Assembly (NCBI GenBank): GCA_964594465.1
Contig: CAZQMR010000001.1
Location: 1 to 47,078 of the forward strand
Direction: 5' to 3'
Source: an uncultured Rhodobacterales bacterium
Lineage (GTDB): Bacteria; Pseudomonadota; Alphaproteobacteria; Rhodobacterales; Rhodobacteraceae
DNA: 47,078 bases
The notes beneath the pieces were generated by a model. It had not been told where the DNA came from. It made no database searches and saw only the letters and a program-made list of their open reading frames with translations. Each line of letters starts with the position of its first letter. The first letter of the stretch is position 1. The translations under genes were made by a program, and so were the position numbers. Of this stretch, positions 7,108-25,710 are shown one piece after another.

Positions 7108-7563
7108 TTAATTGGCGTTGTACTTTTGATCCACGTCGTCGATTGCTTGAACATTTGCGGCAGAGCGCCCCTCTGGATCAAAGGAGCTTTCGAGATATGC
7201 ATCCACGATCGTCTTGGCCAATTCTGCAGCTATCGTGCGCGCGCCGATTGTTATGATCTGAGCATTGTTTGATGTCGCGGCTTTTCCGGCTGAATATGCA
7301 TCGCTTACCAAGGCGGCTCGGATACCCGGCACTTTGTTGGCAGAAATGCAGACGCCGATGCCAGTCCCACACACGAGGATAGCGCGGTCGTAGGTTTTGT
7401 TCAGGACCCCTTGCGAAACGCGATCGGACAGATCGGCATAAAAGGCGTCCGGACCGCTTTGGGTATGCGAGATTTCGGAAACGTCGAACCGCTGGCTCAG
7501 GTAGTCAGCCAATTCGCGCGCTAGGATTTCTCCGGCGCTGTCACCCGCAACTGCAAGTTTCAT
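7108..7563 (-). CDS. rpiB: RpiB/LacA/LacB-family sugar-phosphate isomerase (candidate erythrulose-4-P/erythrose-4-P isomerase)
   Basis: ATG at 7563 preceded by AGGAG. '[14 protein letters not shown]' and '[12 protein letters not shown]'. ATGA overlap (7560-7563) with the upstream TIM-like gene. Confidence 0.85.
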
Positions 7564-8330
7564 TTCTGTCTCCTTAGGGTGTCTGTGCAAAGTCCAAGAA
7601 TTTCTAGATAACCATCAATGTTCCAAGCGGATCGCCCGATGAACAGCCCATCAATGTTTGGGCAGTTTATGAGCTCTTGGCAATTCGTTGGGTTCACCGA
7701 CCCGCCATAGAGGCAGGGGATCCGGTGGCCCAAAAGCTCTTGCGCAACTGCAATAATCTCTTCGTGTTTTTCGTCGGCGTAGTCAGAGGTTGCCGGGATA
7801 CCGCCGTCGCCGATCGCCCAGACGGGTTCGTAGGCCAGCAGCACCTGTGCATTCGGCTTGAGCGTGGAAATGCCAGACAAGGCAGCGCTAACTTGCTTGC
7901 GCAGGACTTTGCTTGCGTCTCCCGCTTCGCGTTCTTCAAGTGTTTCGCCGATGCAAATCAATGGGATCAATCCATTTCGCACGGCGGCGGCGGCCTTTAG
8001 TCCTACGGTCGTATCAGTTTCGCCAAAATGCGCTCTGCGTTCTGAATGACCCAGTTCTACGATTTCAGCGCCGCAATCCGCGACCATCAGGGGCGAAATT
8101 TCGCCGGTCCACGCCCCTTGGTCTTCCCAGTGCATGTTTTGCACCCCGACCTTGATCGACGTGTCCGACAGAATGCTTGCGACCTCGCGCACGGCCGTAA
8201 ATGGCGGTATGACGAAACGCTGAATTTTGGTGTCATCATTGCCACTCAGACGCAATCCTTGGGCAAAGGTTTGCGCCTGTGCCAATGTTTTGTTCATCTT
8301 CCAACTGGTGCCGATCCAGAAGTCTGCCAC
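7560..8330 (-). CDS. tpiA: Triosephosphate isomerase family protein (paralog; candidate tetrulose-phosphate isomerase)
   Basis: 'SWKMNK', 'LGHSERR' and 'AYEPVWAIG' catalytic motifs. The ORF extends to the TTG at 8351. GTG at 8330 (preceded by GGTGGA) gives the usual N-terminal length, so the start is uncertain. Confidence 0.8.
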
Positions 8331-8361
8331 TGAAAATTCCACCCAAGCCAATACCTATTGT

Positions 8362-8376
8362 AACTGGTATAATGAG
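8362..8376 (+). promoter_or_regulatory. Shared box copy a: AACTGGTATAATGAG (tpiA/tal divergent promoter region)
   Basis: One of six near-identical boxes found in intergenic regions. Contains the extended -10-like TGGTATAAT, oriented toward tal. Confidence 0.55.
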
Positions 8377-8447
8377 TTAGTATGGGGTTGAAAACCCGAA
8401 AACTTTCGTGGATTTAGGAACCAACCGGCCTAACCTTGGGGACCAAA

Positions 8448-9392
8448 ATGGCAAGTGCATTAGAACAATTGCGGTCAATGACCGTTGTCGTGGCAGACAC
8501 CGGCGACGTTGAGGCCGTAAAGACTTATAAACCCGTCGATTGCACAACCAATCCATCGCTGGTTTTGGCTGCACTGTCAGACCCGGCGTCTGAAGAACTG
8601 GTCGTGACGGAAATTGAATCGGGTCGAAAAACAAGCAGATCTGCAGAGCAGGTCTGTGCATCGCTCACAGTTGCAGCGGGTGCCCGGCTTGCCGCTTTGA
8701 TCCCTGGCCGCGTTTCCACGGAGGTTGATGCCTGTTTGTCGTTTGACAAAGACGCCTCTGTCGCACGTGCCCGTGACATTGTGGCAGATTATGCCCAGCG
8801 AGGGATCGACAAGGATCGCATCCTTATCAAACTTGCCTCCACATGGGAGGGCATTCGTGCTGCGGAAATTCTTCAAGACGAAGGCGTTGACTGTAACCTG
8901 ACATTGCTCTTCTCATCCGCGCAGGCTGTAGCTTGCGCCGATGCTGGTGCTTTTCTGATTTCGCCCTTTGTGGGTCGGATCACGGATTGGTACAAAAAGG
9001 CTGAAGGGCGCGACAGCTACGCCCCGGATGATGACCCGGGCGTAAAGTCTGTGCGCGGCATTTACGACTACTACAAATCCAATGGGATTAAGACTGTCGT
9101 GATGGGGGCGTCCTTCCGCAGCACCGATCAGATAAAGGCCCTAGCGGGCTGCGATAACCTGACGATTGCGCCAAAACTGTTGGATGCTTTGGAGAGCGAT
9201 CAATCGGAATTGCCGCGAATTCTGTCACCTGAAGGGGCAACAGGCGTACCAGCGATTGCGATGGATGAAGCCACGTTCCGCTGGCAGATGAACGCCGATG
9301 CTATGGCAACAGAGAAACTGGCGGAAGGGATCCGCAATTTCGACGCTGATCATCAAAAGCTAATCAAGATCATCGCAGAAAAGATGGCCTAG
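8448..9392 (+). CDS. tal: Transaldolase (TalB-type)
   Basis: 'DTGD', 'TTNPSL', Schiff-base lysine context '[11 protein letters not shown]', and 'ISPFVGRI'. ATG at 8448 inside ORF 8436-9392. Confidence 0.9.
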
Positions 9393-23471: not shown

Positions 23472-24215
23472 TTAGGTGGCGCGGCGCGGTGCGAACATTT
23501 CCCGGGACCGGTCTAGATGGCTTTGCATTTCAACCACGGCACCTGCGGAATCTTTCTCTGCGATGCAGTCAATAATCCGTGCATGTTCTGCCAAAGTGAT
23601 TTCCTCGTTGCCCGACCAATGCAACAATGCGGTGTGGAACTCCTGCAGCCAGCGCAGCATTGCGCTTGAAGCGGCGGTCACAACAGGGTTGCCGAGAATA
23701 TCTGCAATACCTGTATGAAACGCCATGTCCGCCTCAATGAAGTTTCGAACATCGACATTGTCCGACAAGAATTTTTCTTGTTTCGCATTCAAGCTACGAA
23801 GGGCCTCAATATGCTCTTCTGTCGCCTTCTGAGCTGCGGCATTGACAATTCCAAGCTCGAACATTCGTCGTGCTTCTTTGAGGTGTTCCAGATTGGCCGG
23901 CACTGCGTCCAGCAGAATTTTCGCAACGGTATCGCTTTGATCAAGCACAAGATTGGCCGAAAGTTCATTGACCCGGCTTCGCTCACCATGGCTGATCGTG
24001 ATCAGTCCCTGAGTATGCATGGATTGCAATGCTTCACGAACCGCTGGGCGACCGACGCTAAAGCGTTCCATCAAGGCACGTTCCGACGGTAAATAATCGC
24101 CAGGGCTAAGCTCACCGCTACGGAGCATCTCGCGCAACCGTTCCAACACTTGTTCGGAGAGTTTCAGTCTTACAATCTTTTCCGCACTTTTCTGCGGTAC
24201 ATCAGATGTCATCAT
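23472..24215 (-). CDS. GntR-family transcriptional regulator, FadR subfamily (paralog 2)
   Basis: 247 aa. 'LPSERALMERFSVGRPAVREALQSMHTQGLITISHGERSRV' is nearly identical to the wHTH of paralog 1. Confidence 0.85.
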   Translation of the reverse strand: MMTSDVPQKSAEKIVRLKLSEQVLERLREMLRSGELSPGDYLPSERALMERFSVGRPAVREALQSMHTQGLITISHGERSRVNELSANLVLDQSDTVAKILLDAVPANLEHLKEARRMFELGIVNAAAQKATEEHIEALRSLNAKQEKFLSDNVDVRNFIEADMAFHTGIADILGNPVVTAASSAMLRWLQEFHTALLHWSGNEEITLAEHARIIDCIAEKDSAGAVVEMQSHLDRSREMFAPRRAT

Positions 24216-24315
24216 TCATTCCATTTTTTTCGACCAAATCTCAAGGTATCGGATTATAAGTCAACTGAATTGATCTTCTCTGACGTTGACCTTAACCAAA
24301 GCCAAGAGTAGTAGA

Positions 24316-24330
24316 TACTGGTATGATGAG
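24316..24330 (+). promoter_or_regulatory. Shared box copy e: TACTGGTATGATGAG (13 nt upstream of the kinase ATG)
   Basis: One mismatch in the TATAAT core relative to copies a and d. Confidence 0.5.
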
Positions 24331-24342
24331 GTGATATATAAC

Positions 24343-25710
24343 ATGAATTCCCCTGCTGCCAACAAATTCCGTCGACCTTTGGTCGCTTGGCTAGGAGATG
24401 ATTTCACTGGAGCCGCCGCCGTTATGGAGGTTTTGAGCTTCGCCGGACTGCCGTCAATCTTGTACTTATCCACACCTGACGCAAAGGCTCTAGAAGAAAA
24501 CAAGGACTGCGTGGGGATTGGTATCGCTACTCTCGCGCGGTCAAAATCACCGGATTGGATGGAAGACAACCTTCCAGCGGTTTTTGAGTTTCTTGATCAG
24601 ACGGGAGCCGAACTGGTGCACTATAAAATCTGCACCACGCTCGACTCTTCACCATTGGTTGGATCGATCGGCAAAGCCATTGATCTGGGCCTAAAACATT
24701 TTGGAGAAGCCGCAGTTCCGGTGGTGACAGCAGCCCCGCAAATGAGACGGTATCAAGCCTTTGGGTCTTTGTTTTGCTCAGCTGCCAACGGAGTATACCG
24801 GCTCGATCGCCACCCGGTCATGGCCCATCATCCAGTGACACCGATGGATGAAGCGGATGTCGCCCGCCACTTAGCAAAGCAAACGCAAAGGCCGACGGGC
24901 TGCATAGATCTGGAGGATCTTTCAGAGCAGCGCGCGGCTCAGAAGCTGGAAAGTGCCGCGCAAGTCTGGACCCTTGATCTGACAGCCGCCGAGCAACAAG
25001 CAGAAGTGGGTCGCCTGCTTTGGGAGCGGCGTAAAGACAGCCGCTTTGTTGTGGGGTCTCAGGGTATTGAATACACGTTGGTCTCTTATCTGCGCGAGCA
25101 GGGCATAATCGAGTCAATCGCCCCTCCACCTGGTCTTGGGCGAGACAACAATTTTGCAGTCGTATCCGGCTCGGTATCTCCAACCAGCGCTGCGCAAATT
25201 GCTTGGGCACGCGAAAACGGTTTTGCCGCAATCCGGCTTAACGCGGCGCAGCTTTTATCTGGCGATGCCGCAATGGTGGAGGATCAGGCGTTGTCCGAAG
25301 CAAAGGCTGCTCTTGCAATAGGCAAGCCGCCCATCATCTTTACTGCGGAGGGCCCCGACGACCCAACCCTGGACGAAGTCAATAAAGCCGCGTCAGGCGA
25401 CATGGATCATGCAAATGACCTGATCGGCCAAGCGCTTGGTAGGATCATGCGGGCTTTGGTTATTGATCTTGATCTGCGACGCATCGCCGTATCGGGCGGT
25501 GATACATCTGGCCGGGTCTGCAAGGAATTGGGCATCTATGCATTGGTCGCGGTTTCTCCGACCATCCCTGGGGCTGCAATATGCCGAGCACGTGCGAACG
25601 GCAAATTAGACGGTCTCGAAATTGCACTGAAAGGCGGCCAGATGGGTTCGCCCGATTATTTTGGCTGGGTGCGCGATGGAGGCGGGGTTTCGTCGCAGCG
25701 ATCAGCTTAG
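24343..25710 (+). CDS. DUF1537 'four-carbon acid sugar kinase' family protein
   Basis: ATG at 24343 in ORF 24286-25710. N-terminal 'VAWLGDDFTGAAAV' and C-terminal nucleotide-binding 'IAVSGGDTSGRV' are motifs characteristic of the OtnK/DtnK/OiaK family. Confidence 0.8.
   Translation: MNSPAANKFRRPLVAWLGDDFTGAAAVMEVLSFAGLPSILYLSTPDAKALEENKDCVGIGIATLARSKSPDWMEDNLPAVFEFLDQTGAELVHYKICTTLDSSPLVGSIGKAIDLGLKHFGEAAVPVVTAAPQMRRYQAFGSLFCSAANGVYRLDRHPVMAHHPVTPMDEADVARHLAKQTQRPTGCIDLEDLSEQRAAQKLESAAQVWTLDLTAAEQQAEVGRLLWERRKDSRFVVGSQGIEYTLVSYLREQGIIESIAPPPGLGRDNNFAVVSGSVSPTSAAQIAWARENGFAAIRLNAAQLLSGDAAMVEDQALSEAKAALAIGKPPIIFTAEGPDDPTLDEVNKAASGDMDHANDLIGQALGRIMRALVIDLDLRRIAVSGGDTSGRVCKELGIYALVAVSPTIPGAAICRARANGKLDGLEIALKGGQMGSPDYFGWVRDGGGVSSQRSA

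Follow-up and report, generated by a model that had tools for sequence, protein, structure and literature searches.

A predicted D-apionate catabolic regulon composed of two modules under one putative operator in an uncultured Rhodobacterales bacterium

Which substrate is served by a RuBisCO-like protein (RLP), a DUF1537 kinase, a pair of phosphosugar isomerases and two sugar importers whose genes are spread over several transcription units in the genome of an uncultured Rhodobacterales bacterium? These genes are located on contig CAZQMR010000001.1 of assembly GCA_964594465.1, of which we analyzed positions 1 to 47,078; this whole stretch of 47,078 nucleotides (nt) is referred to as the window. 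A first-pass annotation, made from the sequence alone, had read the genes as an acid-sugar pathway feeding erythrose-4-phosphate and had left the substrate open. Our analysis indicates that the locus is a regulon for D-apionate catabolism which follows the published ApnO-OiaK-OiaX scheme and continues to erythrose-4-phosphate, and we assign this reading a probability of roughly 80%. A map of open reading frames (ORFs) together with Pfam and NCBIfam scans of the window proteins formed the basis of the gene inventory (Table 1), in which every gene listed beforehand was recovered at its place.

The oxidative D-apiose pathway, as far as it is outlined where Carter et al. (2018) is cited in PMC12994016 and PMC11747546, comprises ApsD, ApnL, ApnO, OiaK and OiaX. 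The numbers EC 1.1.1.420, 3.1.1.115, 1.1.1.421, 2.7.1.231 and 4.1.1.121 describe the oxidative D-apiose/D-apionate pathway with its RLP decarboxylase branch. ApnO, OiaK and OiaX act in D-apionate degradation, and such sets were seen in Roseovarius (PMC12994016); a Rhodobacteraceae isolate possessing ApnL, ApsD, ApnO, OiaK and OiaX grows on D-apiose (PMC11747546). LerI and DerI convert L-erythrulose-1-phosphate to erythrose-4-phosphate (PMC10733421), and in Brucella transaldolase is needed downstream of erythrose-4-phosphate, which makes it a documented exit (PMC11005471). The pathway details used here rest on these citing papers and on NCBIfam and EC names.

The enzymes encoded in the window fit this scheme. 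The stand-alone Rossmann enzyme gave a full-length match to PDB entry 5T57 (E = 3.8e-123, residues 18-291 versus 23-296, about 70% identity), which is the D-apionate oxidoisomerase ApnO according to a classification paper (bioRxiv 10.1101/2020.08.24.261826), and it was 85-88% identical to the apnO products of roseobacter apiose clusters. The RLP, a form-IV RuBisCO-like protein according to the Pfam scan, reached 779 bits with the model NF042437 (OiaX, a decarboxylase of 3-oxo-isoapionate-4-phosphate; cut-off 700) in a full-length alignment and was 73-76% identical to the RLPs of the canonical clusters L002 and L003 of our comparison set. We regard it as an OiaX-type enzyme with a predicted decarboxylase activity converting 3-oxo-isoapionate-4-phosphate to L-erythrulose-1-phosphate; the name OiaC, under which the decarboxylase had been entered in the first-pass annotation, should read OiaX (PMC12994016). 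Its gene is indeed the last one of a CUT1 operon, starting 77-107 nt past the ATPase gene of importer #1 and lacking an operator of its own. For the DUF1537 kinase, OiaK was the best model, compared to 160 bits for the 3-oxo-tetronate kinase OtnK and 57 bits for the D-threonate kinase DtnK, and the protein shared 69-75% identity with the kinases of clusters L006, L009 and L014.

The enzymes predicted for the later steps were assigned in the same way. The TIM-like protein matched PDB entry 11ef_A ('L-erythrulose-1-phosphate isomerase') with 394 bits, compared to at most 181 bits for true triosephosphate isomerases; the coordinates of its gene in Table 1 are those of the maximal ORF, and the real start is located a few codons further in. 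For the RpiB-like protein, the D-erythrulose-4-phosphate isomerase model NF051858 scored best, whereas RpiB proper gave 103 bits versus a cut-off of 139, and the best PDB match was 5ifz with 217 bits, the next one reaching 100 bits. The proposed translational coupling of the two isomerase genes was confirmed, the ATG of the RpiB-like gene overlapping the TGA of the TIM-like gene (ATGA). The transaldolase passed the cut-off of TIGR00874 (433 bits versus 396), and orthologues with 77-80% identity adjoin OiaX-type RLP genes in L015 and L022. The proposed sequence of ApnO, DUF1537 kinase, RLP decarboxylase and TIM/RpiB isomerases thus holds wherever sequence can test it.

The first-pass annotation had described the 630-amino acid protein as an orphan heading the second CUT1 operon and had stated that the window contains no lactonase. 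The gene does head this operon, but its product is a lactonase-family protein of the ApnL type, and the statement on the missing lactonase was wrong. The gene looked like an orphan because its relatives are labelled 'hypothetical protein' in RefSeq, those in canonical clusters included. The protein had no match in the local Pfam copy and none in PDB; its database relatives carry the precomputed Pfam domains Apionate_lact_N, Apionate_lact_M and Apionate_lact_C, and the D-apionolactonase model NF049900 aligned with it over its full length (E = 6e-121). It was 55-63% identical to the lactonase-position genes of L006, L007, L009, L010 and L014, which belong to compact apiose clusters of Antarctobacter, Algicella and several metagenome contigs. 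Beside these orthologues we found orthologues of the window regulator GntR2 (79-81% identical) and, in most of the loci, of the kinase (69-75%) and of ApnO (85-88%).

The genes are further connected by a common promoter box, which had been noticed before and proved to be real: the window contains exactly four copies of the 10-mer CTGGTATAAT, all of them in promoter regions. The consensus is AACTGGTATrAT. A 32-nt operator matrix built only from 17 sites in ten other loci recovered six sites in the window (Table 1) with scores of 19-29, compared to 13.9 for the next-best position and to a maximum of 16.7 over 20 shuffles. All six sites fall within the five promoter regions of these units, and the 47 kb contain no others. 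Of 80 metagenome loci encoding an RLP with 66-82% identity to that of the window, 76 contained at least one site scoring at least 18. In Labrenzia and Parvibaculum, where orthologues of importer #1 are isolated amid housekeeping genes, the operator again lies upstream of them (scores of 32.1 and 25.8), and because of this upstream operator these transporters can be tied to the regulon as well.

The geometry of the box is conserved. Before apnO and next to the lerI start, it is inverted and located within 13-17 nt of the start codon, and its position and orientation before apnO are the same in L001-L009. The arrangement between lerI-derI and tal is repeated in L022, the paired boxes between gntR1 and importer #1 recur between the orthologous genes in L095, the box upstream of apnL is present at the same place in L007-L010 and L014, and a near-identical extended site precedes the kinase gene in L006, L008 and L009. 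Since the core contains TGnTATAAT, putative binding of a regulator would make an extended -10 element inaccessible in five of the six cases. Simple consensus scans for promoters and terminators gave no more matches than in shuffled sequences, and an Rfam scan gave no match.

The two GntR-type regulators are paralogues, as suggested previously, with 49% identity between GntR1 and GntR2. Both have an N-terminal GntR helix-turn-helix domain and a C-terminal FCD domain, and both reach the cut-off of the NanR-subfamily model. Orthologues of GntR1 (62-71% identical) are encoded beside OiaX-type RLP genes or importer #1 in L020, L022 and L095, and GntR2 is 79-81% identical to the regulator encoded between the kinase gene and apnL in L006, L007 and L014. 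FadR-subfamily FCD repressors of the NanR/LldR type share this domain architecture, and their operators are likewise short and AT-rich and contain GGTATA; in contrast to them, two paralogues apparently share one putative operator here. Presumably both bind AACTGGTATrAT and are released upon appearance of a pathway intermediate.

The scattering of the genes over several operons had been listed among the deviations from the published scheme. Several transcription units are indeed present; their distribution reflects two modules, each of which recurs elsewhere under the same operator. The window is a mosaic of these modules, which are seen separately in other loci. Module 1 consists of gntR1, importer #1, oiaX, lerI-derI and tal, and module 2 of apnO, oiaK, gntR2 and the apnL-importer #2 operon. 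Module 1 recurs by itself in several loci. L022 contains a GntR1-like gene (62%), a box, an RLP gene of the window type (79%), a DAK-type kinase gene, derI-lerI (70% and 68%), a second box, a transketolase gene and tal (77%). In L020 and L021, a box is followed by such an RLP gene, with a GntR1-like gene before the box in L020; in L015, the RLP gene is convergent with tal (80%); L095 contains gntR1 (71%), two boxes and importer #1 (80-94%). In L018, this type of RLP gene is again the last one of a CUT1 operon, there with a solute-binding protein of the SBP2 type. Fused Dak1/Dak2 kinase genes (about 590 amino acids) directly follow the OiaX-type RLP gene in several marine loci, such as L018 (9271-11040) and L022 (4457-6259), and homologues are present in L016, L026, L027, L051, L067 and L071, with none in the window; the enzyme may be an erythrulose kinase.

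The mosaic is most evident from the RLPs. Those of the window, L002 and L003 form a clade A with 73-76% mutual identity and scores above the OiaX cut-off, whereas those of L005, L006 and L009 form a clade B that is 38-44% identical to clade A and reaches 406-432 bits on the OiaX model. ApnO, the kinase, GntR2 and ApnL of the window are of the roseobacter lineage whose kinase and clade B RLP genes are translationally coupled, but the RLP of the window itself belongs to clade A. The nearest relative of module 2, L014 (importer #2 86-92%, kinase 71%, GntR2 80%), has the same layout as the window with the kinase gene divergent from gntR2-apnL-importer #2. Directly after the kinase gene of L014, a frameshifted clade B RLP remnant is located at positions 1171-1438 (about 117 amino acids, E = 3e-20); no clade B remnant was found after the kinase gene of the window. 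Module 2 of the window lost the clade B RLP gene that follows the kinase gene in its relatives. When the L006 RLP was used for a homology search, the matches bore only generic names of the kind 'RuBisCO large subunit family', and no functional name was obtained for clade B, which by elimination may correspond to the published transcarboxylase/hydrolase OiaT. The link of the window's RLP clade to the pathway is general: of the 80 RLP loci, 60 have the kinase gene adjacent, 48 apnO, 36 apsD and 13 the lerI-derI pair.

A metagenome scaffold (Ga0315336_1000520, L019 1-17242) was observed to carry both RLP clades in one cluster with six operator sites, together with genes for the kinase, ApnL, a GntR regulator, ApnO and DerI-LerI appended to a CUT1 importer of the SBP2 type. 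In the same cluster, a gene with Apiosidase-like (PF13204) and DUF5605 domains adjoins a MalK-type ATPase gene, and no apsD gene is present within the 17 kb.

The first-pass annotation had noted the lack of a sugar dehydrogenase, and apsD is indeed absent, a tblastn search over the whole window giving no match to an apsD homologue. ApsD is a Gfo/Idh/MocA-type protein of about 340 amino acids with the N-terminus MLRGGIIGAGFF, and in nine comparison loci (L001-L004 and L006-L010) its gene adjoins apnO, mostly directly downstream. In the window, DNA homology with five loci extends 40-60 nt beyond the apnO stop codon and stops where the convergent ATPase gene of importer #2 has its terminator and stop codon. 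The translated remnant ..KLPGRMIGAGFFSNTHLNG.. resembles the ApsD N-terminus MLRGGIIGAGFFSGNHLNA, with the start codon altered from ATG to AAG. In Primorskyibacter (L001) and in L010, the same two flanks are about 5.3 kb apart, and apsD and a CUT2 importer are located between them. Because of the remnant and of this spacing of the flanks, the absence of apsD can be recognized as a deletion with a visible scar, by which apsD was lost together with the CUT2 importer. This leaves two possibilities, oxidation of D-apiose by an enzyme whose gene lies elsewhere or uptake of forms that are oxidised already, i.e. the lactone or the acid.

The importers remaining in the window both show the CUT1 set of an SBP_bac_1 solute-binding protein (SBP), two BPD_transp_1 permeases and a MalK-type ATPase with an OB/TOBE tail. 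They are not duplicates of each other, because SBP1 and SBP2 are just 22% identical. Importer #1, which adjoins oiaX in the window, has orthologous operons (66-94% identity) with the operator upstream in L095, L011 and L012. In L013, a Gemmobacter metagenome-assembled genome, an importer #1-type system is embedded in a complete apiose cluster with apnO between the binding-protein and ATPase genes; this cluster (1726-13859) has an RbsD/FucU mutarotase gene at its end and a clade B-like RLP 38% identical to that of the window. Orthologues of importer #2 (80-92% identical) follow apnL in L001, L010 and L014, and homologues (55-67% identical) are present in the apionate clusters L018 and L019. The co-transcription of importer #2 with a cytoplasmic lactonase and the loss of apsD would agree with the lactone or the acid being taken up.

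Based on these assignments, the following route is proposed. The substrate would be taken up by a binding-protein-dependent importer, of which #2 is intact and #1 frameshifted. ApnL would open D-apionolactone to D-apionate, which ApnO would oxidise and rearrange to 3-oxo-isoapionate. The DUF1537 kinase is expected to form 3-oxo-isoapionate-4-phosphate, and OiaX would decarboxylate it to L-erythrulose-1-phosphate. LerI of the TIM family and DerI of the RpiB family would then yield D-erythrose-4-phosphate, which transaldolase could channel into the pentose phosphate pathway.

With the oxidative D-apiose pathway the window shares ApnO, an OiaK-type kinase, an OiaX-type RLP, an ApnL-family lactonase and a GntR/FCD regulator, and LerI/DerI would take over L-erythrulose-1-phosphate. 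It differs in the scar in place of apsD, in the division into several transcription units, in CUT1 rather than CUT2 importers, in a kinase/lactonase/ApnO lineage that is elsewhere paired with the other RLP clade, and in the placement of tal under the same operator. The compact roseobacter clusters (Antarctobacter L006, Algicella L007 and L009; strain LCG007, PMC11747546) resemble the window in ApnO, kinase and GntR2 at the identities given above, in ApnL (55-62%) and in operator positions. In contrast, the kinase gene of L006 and L009 is coupled to an RLP gene of the second clade, whose product is 38-39% identical to the window RLP and below the OiaX cut-off; apsD lies beside apnO, in L007 and L009 together with a CUT2 importer; and neither lerI-derI nor tal is found nearby. 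The lower erythritol pathway of Brucella (EryH/LerI and EryI/DerI), as described where Barbier et al. (2014) is cited in PMC11005471 and PMC5468441, uses the same isomerase pair for the conversion of a tetrulose phosphate to erythrose-4-phosphate and relies on transaldolase in the same way, but the chemistry upstream differs, being in the window the predicted decarboxylation of a branched C5 acid sugar, and eryA, eryB and eryC genes are absent. The window thus represents a known pathway with no new chemistry, and its organization leaves the expected catalysis unchanged.

Several observations weigh against the assignment of the locus to D-apionate catabolism. The kinase remains below the equivalog cut-off of the OiaK model NF042436 (447 bits versus 700), the ApnL-type protein below that of NF049900 (405 versus 750) and the RpiB-like protein below that of NF051858 (226 versus 240). 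The kinases of the canonical clusters L002, L005 and L006 likewise reach only 429-446 bits, and because even these miss the value of 700 the OiaK cut-off appears narrow and not diagnostic; the lactonase-position genes of L002 and L005 are also below the ApnL cut-off (670 and 346 bits). Entry from free apiose is not encoded in the window, and CUT2, not CUT1, is the importer type reported to bind D-apiose. Moreover, permease A of importer #1 contains a single-base frameshift that is absent from the first-pass description. At about 14700-14705, where the protein reads ...PYVVA followed by AMTWKF..., the sequence is GTCGTCGCGCGATGACATGG, and the homologues require GCGGCG, one base having been lost. 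Intact homologues align across the break in two frames with 78% and 91% identity, and because of this conservation of both halves and the lack of any other lesion the break is either very recent or a sequencing error.

The alternative that fares best concerns the entry substrate. An apiose glycoside or oligosaccharide, for example from apiogalacturonan or rhamnogalacturonan-II, might be imported by one or both CUT1 systems and D-apiose be freed inside the cell. CUT1 systems often carry oligosaccharides, the PDB relatives of SBP1 and SBP2 are distant and all bind neutral sugars, polyols or oligosaccharides, and the Apiosidase-like gene of L019 stands beside a MalK-type ATPase gene in a cluster with an SBP2-type importer. 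This apiosidase-like gene is also the one weak hint that we obtained for the oligosaccharide considered in the first-pass annotation. However, the association is limited to one locus, the window contains no apiosidase homologue and no other glycoside-hydrolase domain among the scanned proteins, and without ApsD the freed apiose could not enter the encoded pathway. We therefore consider uptake of apiosides improbable.

Somewhat less probable still is that the locus is a decaying remnant of a pathway that is being lost and does not support growth on apiose-derived compounds. The deletion of apsD and the CUT2 importer, the frameshift in permease A and the absence of the kinase-coupled RLP gene of the second clade would fit such decay. 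On the other hand, the remaining regulon genes show full length and good conservation, the six operator sites all reach the scores of sites in intact clusters, and with the OiaX-type RLP and the dedicated isomerases every step past the lactone is encoded; the halves of the broken permease, as mentioned, show no further damage.

It is very unlikely that the enzymes act on four-carbon acid sugars such as D-erythronate or L-threonate, with ApnO serving as a 3-dehydrogenase and the kinase and RLP yielding dihydroxyacetone phosphate. DUF1537 kinases also work in tetronate pathways, the ApnO reaction on D-erythronate would equal that of a D-erythronate 3-dehydrogenase (PMC12994016), and ApnO-OiaK-OiaX genes are located near clusters for C4-C6 acid sugars in some Rhodobacterales (PMC12994016). 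Yet the kinase prefers the OiaK model over the tetronate and threonate kinase models by a wide range of scores, an apionolactonase-family gene belongs to the regulon, and a C3 product would need neither LerI nor DerI nor transaldolase, the genes of which carry the operator here and in relatives. Nothing in our data supported the different branched or tetronic acid sugar that had been suggested as the substrate. A role of the RLP in methionine salvage, as an enolase or isomerase of the MtnW/YkrW or R. rubrum type without relation to the sugar genes around it, conceivable for a form-IV protein and named beforehand as the result that would overturn the scheme, is refuted at the level of sequence and genomic context by scores of 120 bits on TIGR03332 (cut-off 514) and 165 bits on NF007095 (cut-off 409) and by the adjacency of its relatives to OiaK and ApnO genes in most of the 80 loci.

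Table 1. Features of the predicted D-apionate regulon; positions refer to the window, and reactions and gene names are predictions.
Feature	Position	Strand	Basis or score
derI-like gene, RpiB family (D-erythrulose-4-phosphate to D-erythrose-4-phosphate)	7108-7563	-	Pfam LacAB_rpiB
lerI/eryH-like gene, TIM family (L-erythrulose-1-phosphate to D-erythrulose-4-phosphate)	7560-8351	-	PDB match 11ef_A
Operator box, divergent lerI-derI / tal promoter region	8364-8373	+	exact CTGGTATAAT, matrix score 22.4
Transaldolase gene tal	8448-9392	+	TIGR00874
RLP gene, OiaX-type	9406-10683	-	NF042437
CUT1 ABC importer #1, MalK-type ATPase	10761-11861	-	Pfam
CUT1 ABC importer #1, solute-binding protein SBP1	11869-13197	-	Pfam
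CUT1 ABC importer #1, permease B	13288-14217	-	Pfam
CUT1 ABC importer #1, permease A, frameshifted	14178-15148	-	two ORFs, 14699-15148 and 14178-14702
Two operator boxes, divergent importer #1 / gntR1 promoter region	15159-15168 and 15195-15204	- and +	matrix scores 25.2 and 19.0
gntR1, GntR/FadR-type (FCD) regulator, module 1	15337-16056	+	Pfam GntR+FCD
Operator box, 17 nt 5' of the apnO start codon, inverted relative to the gene	16230-16239	-	matrix score 29.4, best of the window
apnO, D-apionate oxidoisomerase, Rossmann/PGDH_C	16256-17083	+	PDB 5T57 and Pfam PGDH_C
Deletion scar, first ~20 codons of apsD	17084-17160	+	DNA alignments, translated remnant
CUT1 ABC importer #2 operon	17169-21442	-	Pfam
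Importer #2 ATPase	17169-18212	-	
Importer #2 permeases	18216-19073 and 19040-19927	-	
Importer #2 solute-binding protein SBP2, twin-arginine signal peptide	19994-21442	-	
apnL-type gene (D-apionolactonase family), 630 amino acids, first in importer #2 operon	21468-23360	-	NF049900, Apionate_lact_N/M/C
Operator box upstream of apnL	23406-23415	-	exact CTGGTATAAT, matrix score 19.3
gntR2, GntR/FadR-type (FCD) regulator, module 2	23472-24215	-	Pfam
Operator box, divergent gntR2 / oiaK promoter region	24318-24327	+	CTGGTATGAT, matrix score 25.3
oiaK-like DUF1537 kinase gene (3-oxo-isoapionate kinase type), stand-alone	24343-25710	+	Pfam SBD_N+NBD_C (PF07005, PF17042)

A separate sugar locus without the apionate operator follows right after the kinase gene (25813-35404). 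It comprises a gene for a short-chain dehydrogenase/reductase (SDR; 25813-26604) and a CUT2 ATP-binding cassette (ABC) importer (26628-30184), which are divergent from a split transketolase (30302-32136), an FGGY kinase (32139-33602), a SorC regulator (33639-34616) and a second SDR gene (34622-35404). A split transketolase with a kinase recalls the published apulose-4-phosphate transketolase route for D-apiose; no isomerase is present in this locus, and no specific model matched. The SDR-CUT2 operon (25813-30184) was considered as a substitute for ApsD and the CUT2 importer and was rejected as a member of the regulon, as it has no operator site; its binding protein shares only about 30% identity with the binding proteins of apiose clusters and has no close similarity to the D-apiose-binding structures. 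Its SDR may nevertheless be a non-orthologous dehydrogenase.

On the other side of the regulon, the genes of a second split transketolase (1222-3386) precede an SDR gene (3415-4170) and an NMT1/THI5-type ABC system (4437-7053). The segment 35466-45671 contains a type I polyketide synthase of 2482 amino acids (KS-AT-DH-MT-ER-KR-ACP, 38223-45671), with a fatty-acid hydroxylase gene (36857-37834) and a FemAB-like gene (35466-36737) as neighbours. A ParA-type partition ATPase with a MerR-like N-terminus is encoded at the start of the window (11-1186). The region may be part of a plasmid or chromid; a megablast search against plasmids found no close plasmid relative.

As a D-apionate regulon, the locus has four peculiarities, i.e. 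two modules under one operator, CUT1 importers, loss of the front-end dehydrogenase and replacement of the RLP branch. Tentatively, they could mean that this lineage was rebuilt for an entry substrate other than free D-apiose, a possibility that we would not rate as probable: D-apionolactone or D-apionate (or apiosides) would be acquired via two CUT1 importers with binding proteins of new specificities, and the fate of 3-oxo-isoapionate-4-phosphate would have been switched from the clade B reaction to OiaX-LerI-DerI-Tal by a separate module under the same operator.

The comparison shows that the pathway is modular, with RLP branches being swapped and the apiose-oxidising front end being lost. 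The conserved operator motif offers a means of predicting apionate regulons together with transporter genes at a distance from the enzyme genes, and the two CUT1 importer families tied to the pathway by operator and synteny lend themselves to ligand screening as candidates. Pectins of seagrass and duckweed, and also rhamnogalacturonan-II, contain D-apiose as a major sugar, and for coastal carbon turnover it matters which marine bacteria can use this sugar and in which form.

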